DNA from: an uncultured Chloroflexia bacterium | GTDB lineage: Bacteria > Chloroflexota > Limnocylindria > Limnocylindrales > CSP1-4 | DNA length: 64,000 nt | Reading direction: 5' to 3' | Assembly: GCA_963766675.1 (NCBI GenBank) | Contig: CAVYBA010000003.1 | Location: 3,567 to 67,566 of the forward strand | Shown: piece after piece, positions 51,016 through 59,575 of the stretch | How the letters are laid out: every line of letters begins with the position of its first letter | How positions within the stretch are numbered: the stretch's first letter is position 1 | Notes under the pieces: generated by a model | Told to the model about the DNA's origin: nothing | What the model saw: the letters and a program-made list of their open reading frames with translations, nothing else | The model's database searches: none | Position numbers and translations under genes: made by a program

Positions 51016-51037
51016 TGGTCGGGGCGAGAGGATTTGA
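51016..51037 (-). repeat. att-like site 1: 22-nt 3' end of tRNA-Pro
   Basis: Reverse complement TCAAATCCTCTCGCCCCGACCA = T-loop, T-stem, acceptor strand, ACCA. Confidence 0.8.
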
Positions 51038-51125
51038 CCCCGCGGAACGTAGCTCCTCGCGTCGCCCGAGGCGCTCCAAGAACGCAGGGAGACTCTCACC
51101 CAGCCAAAGTGGCCGGCCGGCCGAC

Positions 51126-52691
51126 CTACGGACCAAATACCTCGACCTCGCGCCAGGCCACCCACGACGGGCTGGCCACGGTTTCCACCCGGATCGCCTT
51201 CACACCCCGCATGGGTGTCGGCAGCACGTACCTCAGCACCTGCTCGTCCTCGGTCATCCCGTGAAACCGATGGAGCAGCACGAGCGAGCCGTTGCCGAGG
51301 CGTGCGTACAGCCGGTGGTCGGTGGGACCCGCCGGATACTGAGAAACGATCAGTCGGACGTCAGCGATTGTGTGGACACCGCCGAGGTCGACCTCGATCC
51401 AGCCGGGCGGCCCGGTGCCGCTGCTCCACAGCGTGTCGGGGTCGCCGTCCAGCGCGCCCTTGGCGGGCGACCCGGCAATCGATCGAGACCCCGTAGCCTT
51501 GTGGCCCAAGGCGAGATTCGCGGCGGCGCCCGGCACCGACCCGAGCGCCGCGTGATTTCGGAAGTAGGTGACGACGAGCCCGCTGAAGGTGGCGGGGTCG
51601 GTGTCTGGCAGCACCCGGTCGGGCTGGAGCATCCACGACTGGAATAGCACGTGGTCAGGGGCTGATCCGGCGGCCTCGAAGGCCTTGACGCGCGCGCCGG
51701 CAAGGGCGATCCAGGCCGCCCGATCAGTCTCGCTGCCACCGTTGTAGATCATGCCGATCGGAACGCCGCGTGACCTGGCAGACGAAGCCGCTTCCTGGGC
51801 GAGCGCGGGCCAGCCGCTACGCGACCAGTCGGCGTCAAGGTGGAGGAACGCGAACGGCTCGCCGCCCGCCGCACGATACGCGTCCAGCCACTCCCCCAAC
51901 CCGGCGGCTGACACAGGCGCCGGGAGCGGCTCGGTGTCACCGATGACGACAGCCGGGAAGACCGCACGCATCTGGTCGCGATAGGCCACCACGCCGGCGG
52001 CGATCCGATCCAGCGGCCAATGACAGGCATTCGGCCCGTCGTAAACGTGGGCGAAGAAGTAGGGCTCATCGAAGGCGATGATGTCGATGCGCCCGCCCGC
52101 GGCCAGGATCCTGGCCGCGATGAGCCGGCCCTCGTCCAGGCCGGCAAAGCTCTCCACGCCGGTCCCGCACCCCGAAGTGGCGTCCAGTGGCCCCGCCTCC
52201 ACGGCCAGGGCCATGCCTCGGCTGGCGATGCCCGCGACGGCCTCGCGCAGTTGATTGGGCGTGGCGTGGTAGGCCACCCACTCCCCGTAGAGCTTGTATA
52301 CGCCGATATACCGGGCGGCGGTGGACCAGGGCGCTCCAGCTTGGAACTGGGCCATGAAGTCGGTCGATCCCGTCCGGCCGGGCATCGGCGGCAGGGGCGC
52401 GAACCAGGCGAGCGGCCGCGCCGATAGGTCGACGGGCGTCGCGCCGGGCGTCGGGGCGGTTGACGGCGCAGATATCGCGGGCGTCGCCGCCACCACCGAC
52501 GGAACGATTGAAGCCGGCCTGCCCGACCCCAATGTGGTGACCGGAGGCTCAGCCGAACCTGCAGGAGCGCCGGTGGCCCGCGAGCGTGCCGGGGTGGACG
52601 TAGGCCCTGGGGCTGCGCAACCGGTTGCAAGTGCCACCATGACCGCGACGACCGCCAAGCTGCTTATGCCAACTCGCTTCGGCCTCGCCAT
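51126..52691 (-). CDS. Secreted/lipoprotein with putative glycoside-hydrolase-like domain and C-terminal discoidin (F5/8 type C) domain
   Basis: Start MARPKR, hydrophobic stretch ending LATGC, P/T/A linker, FDEPYF, ALDGDPDTLWSSG...WIEVDLG...EVEVFG. Confidence 0.75.
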   Translation of the reverse strand: MARPKRVGISSLAVVAVMVALATGCAAPGPTSTPARSRATGAPAGSAEPPVTTLGSGRPASIVPSVVAATPAISAPSTAPTPGATPVDLSARPLAWFAPLPPMPGRTGSTDFMAQFQAGAPWSTAARYIGVYKLYGEWVAYHATPNQLREAVAGIASRGMALAVEAGPLDATSGCGTGVESFAGLDEGRLIAARILAAGGRIDIIAFDEPYFFAHVYDGPNACHWPLDRIAAGVVAYRDQMRAVFPAVVIGDTEPLPAPVSAAGLGEWLDAYRAAGGEPFAFLHLDADWSRSGWPALAQEAASSARSRGVPIGMIYNGGSETDRAAWIALAGARVKAFEAAGSAPDHVLFQSWMLQPDRVLPDTDPATFSGLVVTYFRNHAALGSVPGAAANLALGHKATGSRSIAGSPAKGALDGDPDTLWSSGTGPPGWIEVDLGGVHTIADVRLIVSQYPAGPTDHRLYARLGNGSLVLLHRFHGMTEDEQVLRYVLPTPMRGVKAIRVETVASPSWVAWREVEVFGP

Positions 52692-53269
52692 CGCACCCTC
52701 CTTCTCGACGCGCGTCGATGATGCGCCAGGATGGCGTCGCCCTGATGCGACGGGCTCGAGTGCTCGGCTCGGCGGCGTCGTGAGATAGCCCATCTCGCGC
52801 CCCACCGCCACCGCTCACGCAGGCCGCACGTCAGCGGGCGCCTTCGGCCGCCTCGCGCTCATGTCTCCGGAGAATCCGACGATCGTCTTCCTGATCGCGA
52901 TGGTCGGATATCTGGCCCGGGTGATGGAGAGGGAGCGCGCGTCGCGGGTCGAGCCGCGGCTCGCAAGACACCGAGGAGGTGCGGCATTGAGCGTGACCAT
53001 CTGAGCGATAAGCGCGCCGATTGGCATCAAGGTCAGCCGGAGTGGCCAGTCCAACTTTGGATGGCGTCGAACGCCGTGCTGGTTCTGTTTCGCCGTCGGC
53101 GCAAAGGGTACTGGCCCACCGAGTGGTCCTGCGAATGTCCCGAGCCCCCCGGCCGGCTTTCCAGGGGTACATCTGGGTTGGACTGCCAAGAGGGCGAGCT
53201 GATAGTGAATTGGGTGACGGACGAGCGATGGAGTGCTGGCGCTCCAAGCCGACCGCCGAAGAGGTCGTT

Positions 53270-53285
53270 TGGTCGGGGCGAGAGG
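53270..53285 (-). repeat. att-like site 2
   Basis: TGGTCGGGGCGAGAGG; inside a 37-bp perfect repeat shared with site 6. Confidence 0.8.
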
Positions 53286-53314
53286 CTTAGCCCCCAGACG
53301 AACCGGGGCGTCGC

Positions 53315-53737
53315 TTATCCCGGGTCTTGCCCAGGCGAGATCACGTCGACGACGATCCCGAGCGCTGGCCACCTGGCGTCTGTCGTGACGATCCTGTCGG
53401 CTCCCAGCACCTGCGCGGTGGCGACGACGAGGGCGTCGGGAAGGCGCAACGCCCGCCCGTGCATGGCTCGCAAGGCGGCGGCAGCGGCAGCGATCGCCCG
53501 CGAGGCTGGTTCGACCCGAGCCGGCAGTGCATCGACGAACCGGTCGGTCGTCGCGACCGCCTCCGCACCCCGCCGGGATGGGGAGACGAGGCATTCGGCG
53601 TATGTCGAGGCTGGAAGCACGAGCTCGTCGCCGCGCCGCCGGGCCGCCGTCAGGGCCTCCCGTGCCTGGGCATGGTGCGGGTCGCCGGAGTCGAGGATGG
53701 CGATCACGAGCCCGGCGTCGAGGACAGTCAGTCCCAT
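53315..53737 (-). CDS. PIN domain toxin (VapC-like)
   Basis: VLDAG.VIA.LD..D.HH, YAECLV, LRLPDALVVATA, IVTTD. Confidence 0.9.
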   Translation of the reverse strand: MGLTVLDAGLVIAILDSGDPHHAQAREALTAARRRGDELVLPASTYAECLVSPSRRGAEAVATTDRFVDALPARVEPASRAIAAAAAALRAMHGRALRLPDALVVATAQVLGADRIVTTDARWPALGIVVDVISPGQDPG

Positions 53738-53976
53738 TCGTCGCGCAGGGCGTCAAGGTCGCCCGGCTCGAAGACCCCGGTGAGCGCGCCGGCGAATTGG
53801 GTCACCGGGTCGGCGTCGAGAATCAGGAGGACCTCGCCCGGACCACGTACCTCCGCGCGAAGGGCATCACCCGTCCGCAGTCCCGCGCCGCGAAGGGTCT
53901 CGACGGGCAGCGTCACCTGGTGCTTCGCACTGACACGCGTATACCCGCGTCGGCGTTGCTTGACTCGTTCCTTCAT
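53728..53976 (-). CDS. AbrB/MazE/SpoVT-type antitoxin
   Basis: TRVSAKHQVTLP...LR.AGLR.GD.L; overlaps the PIN gene. Confidence 0.88.
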   Translation of the reverse strand: MKERVKQRRRGYTRVSAKHQVTLPVETLRGAGLRTGDALRAEVRGPGEVLLILDADPVTQFAGALTGVFEPGDLDALRDEWD

Positions 53977-53986
53977 GAGTCAAGCA
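53957..53986. promoter_or_regulatory. 10-10-10 inverted repeat straddling the antitoxin start codon, likely operator
   Basis: TGCTTGACTC-N10-GAGTCAAGCA. Confidence 0.7.
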
Positions 53987-54073
53987 TAGTGCCATGGACG
54001 CGTCCCGGCAATGCCAGTCAATCCGAGGCACGTGCGGGGACCGAGGTGCGGCCCGGTGGCGTTGGGTCGAGTC

Positions 54074-54092
54074 TGGTCGGGGCGAGAGGATT
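54074..54092 (-). repeat. att-like site 3
   Basis: TGGTCGGGGCGAGAGGATT. Confidence 0.8.
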
Positions 54093-54232
54093 AGAGCCGA
54101 CACGGCGTCGCCAGTTCGGATCATCCCGGTGACGAACGTTCCGAGCTACGTCGACCGAGCCTCGGAGATCGCCTAGGTCTGCGACGATAAGCGGGTACCG
54201 GCAAGGGGCGCGCGCCTGCAGGCTCGGCTGGG

Positions 54233-54610
54233 TCAGGTTGCCTCGGGACCGTCCAGGTTGACCGTCACCGGGCCCTGGCCGACGCGGACGACGACGCCGT
54301 CGTTAGGGTCGGCACCGGCGTTGCCCTCGCGGTGCACGACGCCCTTCGGGATCAGCACGAAGTCCCCGGGCGCGACTTCGATCCGCTCGGACCCGCCGGG
54401 GCCAAACTCCACGAAGAACCGGCCGCGGGTGACGTGCCCGTACGTGTCGTGGCCGGGGTGGACGTGCCAGTCCAATTCCTGGTGCGGGGTGTTCTCGATA
54501 CGACCGACCCAGACGTGCCCATCAGCGAACGCCTCGAAGCGCGTGACGCCCGGCGTAGCGGTCTCGACGCCCAGGAGCTGGTCCTTCGTGACCAGGGTCG
54601 GCCGGTCCAT
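54233..54610 (-). CDS. Cupin domain protein
   Basis: WHVHP.HDTY, PGDFV.IPKG.VHRE; GGAGG RBS. Confidence 0.88.
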   Translation of the reverse strand: MDRPTLVTKDQLLGVETATPGVTRFEAFADGHVWVGRIENTPHQELDWHVHPGHDTYGHVTRGRFFVEFGPGGSERIEVAPGDFVLIPKGVVHREGNAGADPNDGVVVRVGQGPVTVNLDGPEAT

Positions 54611-54693
54611 GTTCCACCCTCCCTGAGCGAGCCGCGGCGAGGCCGAAGCAGATCCCGGAGTGTACTAAACGCGGGTAGATCGTTTGGTACTTC

Positions 54694-54708
54694 TGGTCGG
54701 GGCGAGAG
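54694..54708 (-). repeat. att-like site 4
   Basis: TGGTCGGGGCGAGAG. Confidence 0.78.
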
Positions 54709-54921
54709 ATAGCGCCAACACGTTCCAACTGTCCATCAGGATCGATGGCGGACGCGTCCCGAACCGTGCGTCGGACATCGCGTAGGCAGCATCCGCAGAG
54801 ATAGGGACTGGCGTTAGCGGCGTGCCCCCGACGGACTCGAACCCCCCAATGGCAAGGCATTGTGCTGGACTCCACCTCGAACTCGGATGAGTGGCGGCCA
54901 TCCGGGCGAGGGCTGAGTCCT

Positions 54922-55593
54922 TCAGGGTGATTGCAGGAGAAGATGCCAGTACGCCCAGTCCTCGTGCGCCTCCGTGTCCTGCTCGACAACGGCGAGACGT
55001 TCGGCCTCGACCCAGCGCATGACCTGGTCACGGCCGGGGTAGTAGTGGTAGCCCGCAACATCGCCTTCGATGACCTCGCCCCTGACAACCGGCAAGCCCT
55101 GCCCGACGAGGTCACTGAACGCCTCGTCGACCACGGCTTCAGCGACCTCCTCGACGGTCAGATACAGATGGCCGCCCGGGCGTACGGCACGATGGAGATT
55201 TGCGATGACAAGCGGCCAGTCCTCAGGGAAGACGTTCTCCATCGCGTCGATGGTCATGACGGCGTCGAATTCGGCCTCGAAGCGCAGCTCCTGGAGACCG
55301 ACCTGGTGGAGGGCGTCGGCGATCCCTCTCGCCCGGGCCTGTTCGAGCATCCCCACCGACTGGTCGATGCCGACGACACGGCGACCGGCAGCCGCGACCT
55401 GCGGGAAGTACTGACCCGTCCCGCACGGGGCGTCGAGCACAAGCCCGTCAGGCGGGCACGTCGCCACGAGCCGCTCGACGAACCGGTGCTGCGTGTCGAC
55501 CCGGTATGGGTGCTCGTCGTACGTTCGAGCCTCTGCGTTGTACGCAGCCTCGACCGCCGCCCGTCGTTCAAGGAGCCACGCCCGGCGGTCCAT
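54922..55593 (-). CDS. Class I SAM-dependent methyltransferase
   Basis: VLDAPCGTG, GIDQS.GML, FDAV..IDAME, PGG.LYL. Confidence 0.9.
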   Translation of the reverse strand: MDRRAWLLERRAAVEAAYNAEARTYDEHPYRVDTQHRFVERLVATCPPDGLVLDAPCGTGQYFPQVAAAGRRVVGIDQSVGMLEQARARGIADALHQVGLQELRFEAEFDAVMTIDAMENVFPEDWPLVIANLHRAVRPGGHLYLTVEEVAEAVVDEAFSDLVGQGLPVVRGEVIEGDVAGYHYYPGRDQVMRWVEAERLAVVEQDTEAHEDWAYWHLLLQSP

Positions 55594-55739
55594 GTCGCAC
55601 ATCTCCCATGCAATGGCGGATCCAACTTGTCGAGCCACCATCCTCCCACGTCCGGATCAGACGTCTGGGCACCTTGTGGGCAGCGGCGGGCAGGCTCTGG
55701 GCACATACACGCGTCACTTGGGCAGCGTCTGGGCACCTC

Positions 55740-56314
55740 GACGCTCTGCCCTGGGCACTCCCGTCCGCGACCCCGACCAGACCAAAGGGATGGCGCGGTC
55801 GCCGCGACGGGTAAGGGGTGCGGCCGGAAGGTCTACGAGGACGCCATTGGCAAGGTCCTGGATCGAGTTGCGCTCGGAGCCGGCTCGCTCACCCAGGTCG
55901 TCGGAATGGTCGCCGTTTCTGCGTCATCGCCTGATGAGCAGGCGCTCGTCCGCACCGAGCGGGAGCGTGACGCTGCCGTGGCGCGATACCGGCGGGACCG
56001 TGACAGCGCGTCGCTCGATCAGGCGATGGCCCGGCTGGACGCCGAAGAGCGGGAGGCTCGTCGCCCTCGCGACATCGATGGGGTCCCCGCCGATGTGGCG
56101 GTCCGCTACCTCCGGGAGCTGACGACGACCTAGAAGAAGGCAGACGGCGGCTCGGGTCGGCGGATGCTGGCGGAGGGCCCTGTGCAGCCGGATCGAGGTG
56201 TTGGGCGCAAGGCAGGCCACGATCCACCTCAGCGACGCAGCGGTGGCGTACGGGTTCGCGGCGGCGATCCCTGACCGGCTCGATGTGACAGTTGGGAATG
56301 GTCGGGCGAGAGGA
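55740..56314 (+). pseudogene. Decayed C-terminal part of a probable large serine recombinase, running into att site 5
   Basis: YEDAIGKVL..., coiled coil RTERERDAAVARYRRDRD, in-frame TAG at 56131-56133, +1 frameshift, then LCSRIEVLGARQATIHLSDAAVAYGFAAAIPDRLDVTVGNGR(GER). Family call from recalled resemblance; catalytic domain absent. Confidence 0.55.
56299..56314 (-). repeat. att-like site 5 (one G deleted)
   Basis: TGGTCGGGCGAGAGGA followed by cttGCCCCGACA. Confidence 0.75.
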
Positions 56315-56336
56315 CTTGCCCCGACAAACCGGGGCG

Positions 56337-56604
56337 GCCGAGGGCAACCCGCTCTTCGTCGAGCAGTTCGTTGCGTACATCTCCGGACCAGGCCGTCCCT
56401 GACGGAAGCCGTCTTGGCGACCGGACACCGCCCGATCTCGTCATCCCGCCGACGATCGGCGCACTCCTCGCGGCGCGTCTCGATCGCCTGCCGGATGTCG
56501 AGCGCCGTCTCCTCGAGCGGGCTGCCGTCGTTGGGCGAACGTTCTGGCATGTGCTGCTGCTTGGGCGGATACGTCCCGAAACGTGCGATCGCGCTGACGG
56601 ATGA
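56337..56604 (+). pseudogene. Internal fragment of a STAND ATPase/adenylate cyclase gene
   Basis: AEGNPLFVEQ..., IPPTIGALLAARLDRLP..ERRLLERAAVVGRTFW; no start or cyclase domain. Confidence 0.75.
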
Positions 56605-56660
56605 TCCGCCAGCGCGATCCGGGCCCGGCTGGAGGCCGTCCTCGGCCCCTGCTGGCATGT

Positions 56661-57014
56661 CTAGCCGTAGACGAGGACCTTGTAACCCGCCTTCGTGACC
56701 AGCTTGAGGCTCATCCACTGGCCCGACACGGTTGTCACGTTGACTCGTGGCGTGACCAGCTGGGCGCTGCCCCTATCGTCCCGGTTCAGCTGATACGCCG
56801 CGACGTTGCCGGTGACGAGAACCGCCAACACCAGGGTGCCGACGGGTCCACTGAGCCGGCGAGCGAGTCGCGCCGGGGTTCCACGCCGCTGCGTTGTTGC
56901 GATCCCTGCTGACATCATCAGCCTCCTGCCCTTTGTTGCGATAGCCGCGAGGAACCGACCTCGGCGGCGGATGGGACGGTGGACGGCGGGGTTCGAGTTG
57001 ATCTGCGTGTCCAT
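56661..57014 (-). CDS. Hypothetical protein with single TM/signal segment
   Basis: AAGGAGG before ATG 57014, second GGAGG before an internal ATG; GTLVLAVLVTGNVAA. Confidence 0.5.
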   Translation of the reverse strand: MDTQINSNPAVHRPIRRRGRFLAAIATKGRRLMMSAGIATTQRRGTPARLARRLSGPVGTLVLAVLVTGNVAAYQLNRDDRGSAQLVTPRVNVTTVSGQWMSLKLVTKAGYKVLVYG

Positions 57015-57097
57015 GGTTTGCCTCCTTGAGGGCGTCGTCGGCCAATGCCGGGTCGCCTGGATGGAATTGCTGTTGGTGGGATTCGGCTGGGCTGGGT

Positions 57098-58384
57098 TCA
57101 GGGCGCGCGTCGTTGCCAGGTCGGGTCGCTGATCGCATTCCAGGGCGCCGTGCGGACCGGCCCGCCGGCCGCGTCCAGGATCAACATTGGCGTGCCAAGC
57201 GTGGCTGCCGCGGGCCGGCCGAGGAGTTCGGAATCGTCAGGTGACCAGAGCCAGGCCGCGCAGCAAGCCGTCTCGACCGATCCGGCCGGGGCGATCTGCA
57301 TGCCGACACCGCTGCCGTCCGCCGGGACCACCCAACCCCGGACGTCGTCCTCGCCGCGCGTGAAGCCTTGGGCGAGGAACAGCCGCGTGCCGTCGTTCGA
57401 CCAGGTCGCATGGGCATTCCAGACGGCGCCGACCGGTGACGGAATCTCGCGGTCGCCGGTCCCGTCGGCGTTGACGACGTGCGTCTTCGCCGACAGTCCG
57501 TCCGTCGTGTTGCCCCACGTCCAGTAGGCGACCTTCGATCCGTCGGGCGACCAGCTCGGCCCCGCGAGGTCGAAGCCGGGCTCCATGTTGACGATCTGGC
57601 GTGTCTGGTTGGTCGATCGATCGAGGACGAACAGGCCAGTCCTGGCGCCTCGGCCGATGAACAGGATTTCGTTGCTGTCGGGCGGCCGGTAGGTTGGTTC
57701 CTCGGCCAGCATCCCGACGTCGAGCTGGCTGGCGCCACTGCCATCGGTCCGGGCGATCGTCATGCCCGAGGTGGTGGCGATCAGGAGCTCTCGTCCGTCG
57801 GGCGAGAACTTGTAGCGTTCCCAAGCTCGGCCGCCGGTAGCGGTCGCGAGACTCACCGGGGTTGGAGTGACCAGGGTGAGCCCGGTCCCATCGGAGCGGG
57901 CCACGTAGATTTGGCTGGTGCCGTCAGCCGCGAGCCGCGCGAACGCGATGTGCGTCCCGTCGAGCGAGAAGCGCGGGCCGCGGTCCGTCTCCGGGCCGGT
58001 GATGATCGCCGTCGCCGTGCCCGTCACGGGATCGGCGGTGTAGATGTCGTCGCCGGCGTCGTAGGCAATCACGCCATTCCGTGCCAGGCCGAACGGGGCC
58101 GGAACGCGCTGCTGGCTGCCGACGTAGACGATGGCGGCTGCGAGGAGGGCGAGAAGAACCACGATCGCCAGGACGAAGGACCGCAATGGCAGGCGTGGCA
58201 CGAAGACGGGCTGACGAACGGCGTCAACCATCGGGAGCCACCTTTCCAGGAACGTCCAGGCCGGTCGTTGCCGGATCGTGGCGGTGGTGGCCAGGACGTC
58301 GTCGATGTAGGCGGGATACGGCCCCATCGCGAGATCGCCGAGGATTTCGGGCAGGTCGCGGGTGAGCCGACGTTCGGTCGTCAT
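57098..58384 (-). CDS. Single-pass membrane protein with extracellular TolB/PD40 beta-propeller, probable anti-sigma
   Basis: One TM, repeats PRFSLDG..IAF, FSPDG, PSWSPDGSKVAY, WSNDG, WSPD; coupled to ECF sigma. Confidence 0.85.
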   Translation of the reverse strand: MTTERRLTRDLPEILGDLAMGPYPAYIDDVLATTATIRQRPAWTFLERWLPMVDAVRQPVFVPRLPLRSFVLAIVVLLALLAAAIVYVGSQQRVPAPFGLARNGVIAYDAGDDIYTADPVTGTATAIITGPETDRGPRFSLDGTHIAFARLAADGTSQIYVARSDGTGLTLVTPTPVSLATATGGRAWERYKFSPDGRELLIATTSGMTIARTDGSGASQLDVGMLAEEPTYRPPDSNEILFIGRGARTGLFVLDRSTNQTRQIVNMEPGFDLAGPSWSPDGSKVAYWTWGNTTDGLSAKTHVVNADGTGDREIPSPVGAVWNAHATWSNDGTRLFLAQGFTRGEDDVRGWVVPADGSGVGMQIAPAGSVETACCAAWLWSPDDSELLGRPAAATLGTPMLILDAAGGPVRTAPWNAISDPTWQRRAP

Positions 58385-58941
58385 GCGATCTGCCCTCCCG
58401 CGATTGACGGGGTCGACGTCGGTTCGGTCTCGATCGCGACTCGCATCGCGACCAACGCGCGATGCAGCCGGGACTTGACCGTTCCGAGCGGGATCGAGAG
58501 GGTCGCCGCGACGTCGGTCAACGGCAGCCCCATGTAGTAGTGCAGGACGACGATCGCCCGGCCTTGCGCGTCGAGCCCGCGGAGGACTTCGTCCACGAGC
58601 TGCCGATCGGCGTGAGCGATCGAGCTGTCCGGCAGAGCCGGCTGGTGAAGCGGCGTGAGCTCGACCTCGATGACCCGGCGGCGCCTGTGGCGGACCAGGT
58701 CGAGGCAGGCATTGACGGTGAGGCGATAGAGCCAGGCATCGAACCGGTCGGGATCTCGAAGCTTCCGGAGATCCCGCCAGGCGCGGATCAGCCCCTCCTG
58801 GACGGCGTCGCGTGCGAGCTCCGGATCCCGGAGGATGAGGCGAGCCGCCTGGTCCAGCCGCACGACGGCGGCGCGAGCGAGGTCGGCGAAGGCGTCATGA
58901 TCGCCTCCCCTTGCTCGCTCCACGAGCCATCGCTGGTCCAC
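58381..58941 (-). CDS. ECF sigma-70 factor
   Basis: GDHDAF, DAVQE..IRAWR.L..LRDPDRFDAWLYR..VN, GTVKSRLHRA. Confidence 0.93.
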   Translation of the reverse strand: MDQRWLVERARGGDHDAFADLARAAVVRLDQAARLILRDPELARDAVQEGLIRAWRDLRKLRDPDRFDAWLYRLTVNACLDLVRHRRRRVIEVELTPLHQPALPDSSIAHADRQLVDEVLRGLDAQGRAIVVLHYYMGLPLTDVAATLSIPLGTVKSRLHRALVAMRVAIETEPTSTPSIAGGQIA

Positions 58942-59173
58942 GGTCGCCTCGCATGTCGGACACGGCCACAGCGGTCGTGCCTCATAGCCTATGGCGACGA
59001 GATTCGGTTTTCGGTTCTTCGCGCAATCGGCCCTTACGGCTCAAGGCGCCCGGAGATCGGGATGGCGGCGGGTTCGACGCTGTGACAGGTCAGAGTCAGC
59101 ACCGTTTTCGCTCGCCGAGTGTCCCATCGACGGGCCAGAATCGAGGTGCGGTGCGGTATGGTCCGAGGGAGTT

Positions 59174-59189
59174 TGGTCGGGGCGAGAGG
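59174..59189 (-). repeat. att-like site 6
   Basis: TGGTCGGGGCGAGAGG; 59171-59207 identical to 53267-53303. Confidence 0.8.
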
Positions 59190-59575
59190 CTTAGCCCCCA
59201 GACGAACGACATAGTTGGCACGGTCCGAGTTGCGCCGCGACCTGCCGCCGAGCTACCTGCCTACGTGGCTTAACCGGGGTGCGGCCGCAGCAGTTGGTGT
59301 GACCCGCAACACTGCTTGGTTCCTCTCCCAGGGGCCGCACCGCGGGCATCGAATGAACGAATCGAGCCATGCCGCACGACGAGCCCGGCAGCCGCGCGGA
59401 CTCGGGTGCTGGCACTCAGTCCGGTCCCCGGCCGACCTGCTGACCGGCGCGCCCTAACACCGTGCATCACGATAATCTCCACTGTCGTTGCAGCCGATTC
59501 GGCCGGTTCCATTCCGTTCGCTGGCGGACGCGGGTTCCCGTCGATTGGAACGTGGATCCTCCGATTCGGGCGACC

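Follow-up and report, generated by a model that had tools for sequence, protein, structure and literature searches.

The window analysed here is a 64,000-nucleotide stretch of DNA from an uncultured Chloroflexia bacterium of the Limnocylindrales lineage CSP1-4 (GenBank assembly GCA_963766675.1, contig CAVYBA010000003.1, positions 3,567 to 67,566). It holds six copies of a core sequence, TGGTCGGGGCGAGAGG, which is the antisense of the 3' end of tRNA-Pro(CGG), and none of the six is accompanied by a tRNA. We consider it probable, from comparison with related loci in other genomes, that these repeats are the scars of islands encoding a large serine recombinase (LSR) whose gene spans its own attachment (att) site, with a C-terminal tail that would depend on the state of the island and play a generic role. 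For the window itself the result is more modest, in that its tails are fossils of this LSR island system: none is joined to a live recombinase, and the LSR is reduced to a broken relic.

Core repeats and the recombinase relic

On the plus strand the 15-mer core GGTCGGGGCGAGAGG is found as exact copies at 51017, 53271, 54075 and 59175, as a copy with one mismatch at 54695 and as a copy lacking one G at 56301. In the genome as a whole (G000) the exact core is limited to these sites on contig C3 and to the real tRNA-Pro(CGG) gene (G000:C4:8459-8535). Neither ARAGORN nor Rfam detects a tRNA gene in the window or elsewhere on its contig; the real gene is on another contig. At site 1 (51016..51037; this and all other sites are on the plus strand) the core is followed by six further tRNA-like bases (TGGTCGGGGCGAGAGGATTTGA). 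The match to the tRNA 3' end extends over 22 nt only, and site 1 is not a tRNA; in the recombinase frame (frame 0) it reads GRGERI and a stop, and its right arm is of the type '..CCCCGCGGAAC..'.

Behind the core, three of the other sites carry tails. At site 3 (54074..54176) the core leads into a fossil tail of 28 residues past GRGER, which ends in EIA before a TAG at 54174-54176 and reads GRGERIRADTASPVRIIPVTNVPSYVDRASEIA. Its homologue in genome G001 reads IRADTTSPVLLIPVTNVPSHMGRATEIA, and the same tail family is found on the intact recombinases P0029, P0182 and P0190. Site 4 (54694..54785) has a core with one mismatch and a frame break: in frame 0 it gives GRGER and a stop, and in the +1 frame a tail, ..SANTFQLSIRIDGGRVPNRASDIA, that ends in DIA before a TAG at 54783-54785. 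Members of this family also occur in L082 (TRAATFQLIVRIGRG..AIA) and P0106. The tail of site 6 (59174..59273) runs for 27 residues past GRGER, ends in YVA before a TAA at 59271-59273 and reads GRGERLSPQTNDIVGTVRVAPRPAAELPAYVA; it likewise has a homologue in G001, and its NDV/I-V/I-GTV motif is common to the tails of P0010, P0027 and P0042. Site 2 (53270..53303) retains the core and the first six codons (LSPQTN) of a tail of the site 6 type, followed by the antisense of vapC. At site 5 (56301..56314) the core lacks one G (GGTCGGGCGAGAGG), and part of a STAND/AAA ATPase gene comes next. Either real decay or homopolymer assembly errors may account for this missing G and for the broken frame at site 4. 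Each window tail is matched by a homologue of equal length in other genomes, as at sites 3 and 6 in G001, with further homologues in P0182 and L082, and on this comparison the window tails are judged not to be products of chance. The GRGER frame of the core, the tails at sites 3, 4 and 6 and the GRGERI stop at site 1 are all as set out in the preliminary description, which was made from the letters of the window.

To the left of the core, every junction of the window (51016-59207) has kept a recombinase-side half-site of about 10 nt, GGT(C/G)(A/G)GTNT, a consensus drawn from 45 LSR 3' ends. The half-site lies beside the core in the left arm of site 3 (54030..54073; repeat D4), which is without a recombinase gene, and in that of site 6 (59130..59173), which is 72% identical to it. 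The possibility that the left flanks of sites 1, 3 and 6 are native tRNA flanks was rejected, as these flanks fit the half-site consensus, unlike the recombinase-free tRNA flanks at L115, L118 and L119, where the half-site is lacking. Because the half-site is retained at every site, the window junctions are of the type recombinase arm, core and far arm. Such junctions would be expected of tandem islands that have lost their recombinase and helix-turn-helix (HTH) genes, or of cassettes without a recombinase, and a recombinase provided in trans might still act on the half-site-bearing cassettes of the window. The real tRNA flank on C4 (G000:C4:8415-8459) also holds the half-site. The C4 tRNA locus looks previously occupied. 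With regard to the joining of C3 and C4, synteny with G001 covers the 5' side of the tRNA only.

The sole element-type gene in the window is the LSR relic (55819..56314, plus strand), which comprises the C-terminal ~170 residues of the protein and ends in the core of site 5. The N-terminal two thirds are missing, there is no resolvase catalytic domain, and the remaining frame is broken by a TAG at 56131-56133 and one frameshift. A Pfam search of the relic gave no match, and its identity is based on homologues. These were present in 13 of the 60 other genomes searched, including a relic in G001 with 74% identity, and at 8 of 15 loci the exact core lies at the end of the match. A further comparison matched the relic at E 6e-10.

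The recombinase family and its C-termini

When a C-terminal recombinase fragment from G002 was used as query, 301 proteins were retrieved, the majority of which come from metagenome bins of Candidatus Limnocylindrales and other Chloroflexota. The resolvase catalytic domain is recognised in P0020 (Pfam PF00239, E 1e-12), and within 75 sequences the catalytic serine motif R22-E23-S24 is invariant, as are Cys282, Cys285 and Cys303 in the Cys-rich zinc-ribbon region. PF07508 matches weakly only. An AlphaFold model has long helices across residues 370-450, consistent with a coiled coil, and with Foldseek the model matches the full-length SPbeta, Bxb1 and phiC31 integrases over ~540 columns (E 1e-12 to 1e-14). 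Because of the resolvase domain and these fold matches we assign the family to the large serine recombinases.

Almost all of the best 120 of the 301 homologues reach the sequence ..(E/G)(F/Y/S)GRGER near their C-terminus. After GRGER the proteins fall into three classes: Ile and a stop (~60 proteins, 497-499 aa), Thr, Ala or Ser and a stop, or a tail (typically 524-528 aa in total). At the DNA level the core lies at the 3' end of the LSR gene in ~70 of 78 related loci from Candidatus Limnocylindrales, about 37 of which abut tRNA-Pro(CGG). The copies with a long upstream frame all read the core in frame as GRGER, so that the att core is situated within the recombinase frame, as had been proposed from the window, and these recombinases read through the core rather than stopping before it. 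Where the gene abuts the tRNA it ends as GRGERI and a stop, with the TGA supplied by the antisense of the T-loop (TTCAA); where it faces another island arm the frame continues for a median of 27 codons.

Two apparent departures from this scheme were set aside. A second lineage that would read the core in frame +1 through the antisense tRNA (L015/L027) turned out to be a decayed copy with frameshifts, and L117, a close relative of that copy, reads ..AFGPDVEN-GRGERI and a stop in frame 0. Some LSR copies share a stop 121 codons upstream of the core; these stops belong to frameshifted frames, which are probably assembly (homopolymer) indels or pseudogenes. In L053, L088, L093, L098 and others, from assemblies labelled 'uncultured Chloroflexia MFD', the LSR is frameshifted ~100-120 codons before the core.

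The short and long ends are not properties of separate enzymes. Single clusters at 90% identity contain both the short end and several unrelated tail families, on bodies that are mostly 91-99% identical. In cluster 5, for example, bodies 94-99% identical to the representative carry five distinct tails as well as the short end. As one LSR is found with many unrelated tails, the tails follow the neighbouring arm and not the enzyme, and any role that they have must be generic. C-terminal tail swapping is real and widespread beyond the window. The same recombinases also carry a separate class of short tails (..(Q/H)(N/D)(I/D)DF(V/D)..) of 8-16 residues, mostly with a non-Ala end; its members are P0008, P0014, P0034, P0075, P0115, P0149 and P0164, and the class may correspond to another type of right arm.

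Two loci, L063 (5.5 kb, in a CSP1-4 genome) and L066 (3.8 kb), are simple integrated elements. Both have the order flank, core, tail, HTH gene, cargo, LSR, core, tRNA, and with this layout excision would fuse the LSR frame to the tail at the far junction. That a recombinase abutting the tRNA ends short, and that a tail would be joined to it on excision, had been anticipated in the preliminary description. The attP (the att site of the excised island) is about 50 bp in length, and its left half consists of the last LSR codons (..GGTCRGTNT GGT CGG GGC GAG AGG = ..GRGER). As reconstructed for L066 it is an imperfect palindrome, in which 18 of 29 positions match about the last GG of the core and the outer block GAAGGTCGTT stands on both sides. 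The reconstruction for L063 is weaker and has the same centre. The crossover is predicted to take place at this last GG, within the Arg codon of GRGER. At the start of the tail, 8-9 codons (e.g. PATNDLP) mirror the LSR half-site and are therefore constrained by DNA binding.

Several tail families have a stop that overlaps, or lies directly against, the start of the island's first gene, which encodes a small LuxR/GerE HTH protein. These families are DSPATNDLPITMRLAEPP..RSA, ..SLTQ..INRTP..RSA, ..SLTHLRFRPRFVLEN..KAG and the tail of L064, and Pfam GerE matches were obtained in three of the HTH-coupled families. The junctions read GCATGA, GCGTGA or TGATG (ATGA or GTGA overlaps), and a 4-nt overlap is seen in the called genes. 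Such stop/start overlaps suggest coupled expression of the LSR and HTH genes. Judging from gene order, the two would form one translational unit only at an intact attP or at a tandem junction.

Constraint on the tails and competing explanations

Whether the tails are translated and selected was examined on 50 distinct tail DNAs grouped into families. Within families, the ratio of nonsynonymous to synonymous differences per site (pN/pS) is 0.53 in the recombinase frame, versus 1.04 and 1.26 in the other two frames, and for the seven families taken singly the values in the recombinase frame range from 0.30 to 0.67. Outside the half-site (codons 14 to n-4) the values are 0.50 versus 0.97 and 1.14, and for the last 40 codons of the LSR itself pN/pS is 0.40. 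A test for selection at the protein level on aligned tails had been named in advance as a check on the proposal, and the constraint it brought out is specific to the coding frame. The position of the stop is likewise constrained. In frame 0 the median distance between the start of the core and the stop is 32 codons (interquartile range 30-38), and a stop within 26-40 codons is found in 70% of cases in frame 0, compared with 15% and 2% in the two remaining frames. The tails at sites 3, 4 and 6 had been described as ending in Ala, and this feature reflects a real enrichment: 56 of 76 unique tails (74%) have a terminal Ala, compared with 16.4% of 1,850 long coding-like open frames of the G000 genome. 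Over the 76 tails, the last two residues are SA in 29, IA in 8, AG in 8, TA in 6, VA in 5 and AA in 3. For this Ala, codons with different third bases are used (GCA, GCC, GCG and GCT). With these data the tails are probably translated and mildly selected. An internal start, by which the tail would be a separate leader peptide, was rejected because it was not consistent across families. In the AlphaFold model residues 487-524 have a predicted local distance difference test (pLDDT) score of ~30, so that the tail is predicted to be disordered; this would fit a degron, but no less any short linear motif or an extension that is simply tolerated.

The mechanism we propose is as follows. A Limnocylindrales clade of LSRs would insert islands, ~4-6 kb in size when intact, at the 3' end of tRNA-Pro(CGG), and the six repeats of the window would be the junction scars. 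When the LSR lies beside the tRNA body, the antisense T-loop would provide Ile-TGA and a short form of ~498 aa; when it lies beside the far end of an island, in a free circle or next to a tandem neighbour, the frame would run on for ~27 codons to give the long form. The first 8-9 codons of the tail would be constrained by DNA binding at the half-site, the rest would be under purifying selection in frame, and the tail would usually end in Ala-TGA. The tail would then be a translated, state-dependent C-terminal extension that probably tunes the level or activity of the enzyme in a generic manner. In this scheme it is the intact attP alone that would fuse the LSR and HTH genes into one translational unit.

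Several observations weigh against this reading. A search of 25 complete contigs turned up no circle that carries an intact attP, and many of the long forms are located in tandem arrays on the chromosome, with the LSR facing the arm of the next island. A pN/pS of about 0.5 is a moderate signal only, and the within-family pairs from which it is derived are not independent. Between families, conservation is much lower in the tails than in the body of the enzyme, and since one enzyme tolerates many tails they could be a tolerated read-through that is kept short and harmless. Finally, no HTH gene follows the tails in the families of window sites 3, 4 and 6.

The tails may alternatively have no function as protein, being read-through of the right arm of attP in which the constraint would come from the half-site, the promoter, the ribosome-binding site and the HTH start. 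This explanation accounts for the mirroring of the recombinase-side half-site in the first 8-9 codons, for a block in family C (GACCTTCCGATCACGATGCG) that is conserved at all three codon positions, and for the overlap of tail stop and HTH start, and it sits well with the predicted disorder and with the finding of one enzyme with many tails. We nevertheless regard it as unlikely, because outside the half-site the pN/pS of 0.50 is confined to the recombinase frame, because the stop position and terminal Ala are also kept in families without an HTH gene behind, and because the third-base variation of the terminal Ala codon agrees with selection for the amino acid. That same variation, which points to selection on the residue and not on the DNA, can be taken in favour of the more specific proposal that the tail is a recombination-controlled, ssrA-like degron, in which case ClpXP or a protease like it would degrade the long form made from the circle, and the short form abutting the tRNA would be stable. 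The excess of Ala-ended tails over the background and the predicted disorder, as degrons are disordered, are in keeping with it, and integration-dependent immunity in BPs and Brujita (PMC4557955) is a precedent. The host transfer-messenger RNA gene (G000:C2:230326-230701; an Rfam match missed by ARAGORN), however, encodes a tag that ends in ..NRQSTLALAA, whereas only 3 of the 76 tails end in AA and the conserved hydrophobic-Ala-Ala motif is absent from them. The SA-stop pattern, moreover, is due in part to the overlapping HTH start (AGCGCATGA), and a degron of this kind seems to us quite improbable.

The array might also consist of integron-like cassettes, or of repeats of the repetitive extragenic palindromic (REP) or miniature inverted-repeat transposable element (MITE) type that are unrelated to the C-terminus of a recombinase. 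Short cassettes with all cargo on one strand, and junctions that each have the recombinase-side half-site without a recombinase gene, would be compatible with such an origin. Against it, no IntI-type integrase or attC-like repeat was seen among the array proteins and repeats examined, the core is the 3' end of tRNA-Pro, the same core terminates the LSR gene in dozens of genomes, and the LSR relic is still present at site 5, all of which make this alternative highly improbable. LSR islands with a state-dependent tail are thus the explanation that we prefer. A bolder version, which we hold to be doubtful, is that the island senses its state of integration through the LSR gene. Only an intact attP would then yield the long LSR, whose disordered, Ala-ended tail would alter stability or auto-inhibition, and the stop would hand ribosomes to the LuxR-type gene; direction or timing would in part be set without a conventional directionality factor, and cassettes without an LSR that have both half-sites, like those of the window, could be moved in trans.

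Known systems and cassette cargo

Phage Mx8 integrates at the 3' end of a tRNA gene and exchanges a large C-terminal segment of its integrase. Its attP lies inside the integrase gene, and integration creates a new 3' end and an active enzyme with changed properties (PMC6070905, citing Tojo 1996 and Magrini 1999). With the attP inside the integrase frame and a new C-terminus on integration, as in the Limnocylindrales LSRs, the IntP/IntX pair of Mx8 is the closest analogue. The Mx8 enzyme, however, is a tyrosine recombinase and the Limnocylindrales enzyme a serine recombinase, in which ~27 disordered residues are swapped for a single Ile, many unrelated tails occur per enzyme and the tail abuts an HTH gene.

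In the mycobacteriophages BPs and Brujita it is the repressor gene that contains attP, and integration alters the C-terminus of the repressor with the involvement of an ssrA-like tag (PMC4557955). Those phages thus split a repressor and their tag resembles ssrA, whereas the Limnocylindrales islands would split the recombinase itself and carry tails unlike the host ssrA. Archaeal integrases of the SSV type are split on integration into two inactive parts. Their attP lies within the int gene (PMC8371274). Unlike the SSV type, the Limnocylindrales LSR keeps all of its folded domains whole.

The studied phage LSRs mostly target protein-coding genes, and to our knowledge they keep attP outside the integrase frame. 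In the literature we found no LSR with attP inside its own reading frame. The Limnocylindrales family shares with SPbeta SprA, Bxb1, phiC31 and A118/LI the LSR fold, namely the resolvase domain with its catalytic Ser motif, the Cys-rich zinc ribbon and the coiled coil. It also shares with phage LSRs an attP of ~50 bp with dyad symmetry about a central dinucleotide, although that of the Limnocylindrales is a reconstruction from sequence. Unlike the phage LSRs, it targets the 3' end of a tRNA with a 16-bp identity block. For one-way insertion of DNA the main tools are large serine integrases, and the control of their direction and dose is under active structural study. A naturally occurring family whose recombination rewrites the C-terminus of the enzyme, with a switchable fusion to a regulator gene, would be a serine-recombinase counterpart of Mx8 IntP/IntX, and it offers many natural pairs of short and long enzymes with defined att sites. 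LSR islands would also explain the tRNA-Pro-end arrays that are common in Limnocylindrales genomes.

The cassettes of the window are 620-2,870 bp in length, and each interval holds one to three genes, all on the minus strand. A VapC (PIN domain) and a VapB-like antitoxin are encoded between sites 2 and 3 (53315..53976), a cupin protein between sites 3 and 4 (54233..54610), an S-adenosylmethionine-dependent methyltransferase between sites 4 and 5 (54922..55641), and a small protein, a PD40 beta-propeller protein and a sigma factor of the extracytoplasmic function (ECF) type between sites 5 and 6 (56661..58941). The N-terminus of the PD40 protein shares RQRPAWTFLERWL with a 512-aa cargo protein of the intact CSP1-4 element L063. 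When the ECF sigma and PD40 pair (57098-58941) is set beside L063:7627-9962, RQRPAWTFLERWL is common to both, and this module may travel with the islands. Straight after site 5, at 56320-56700, lies a frameshifted fragment of the STAND/AAA ATPase-LuxR type (GNPLFVEQFVAY.., PPTIGALLAARLDRLPDVERRLLERAAVVGRTF). The order of relic and then STAND gene also occurs in genome G005 (L003), where the STAND-type gene is intact behind a homologous recombinase relic. A second family of right arms (..GG(A/T)(G/T)TTG(G/A)CCCCGCGGAACCTACCTCATCG..) was seen in the window at 51032-51060 and in L019, L024, L026 and L028. In this family the inverted complement, CGATGAGGTAGGT, is present on the left, which results in a long palindrome around the core, and the same arrangement is seen at the real tRNA flank in G011.

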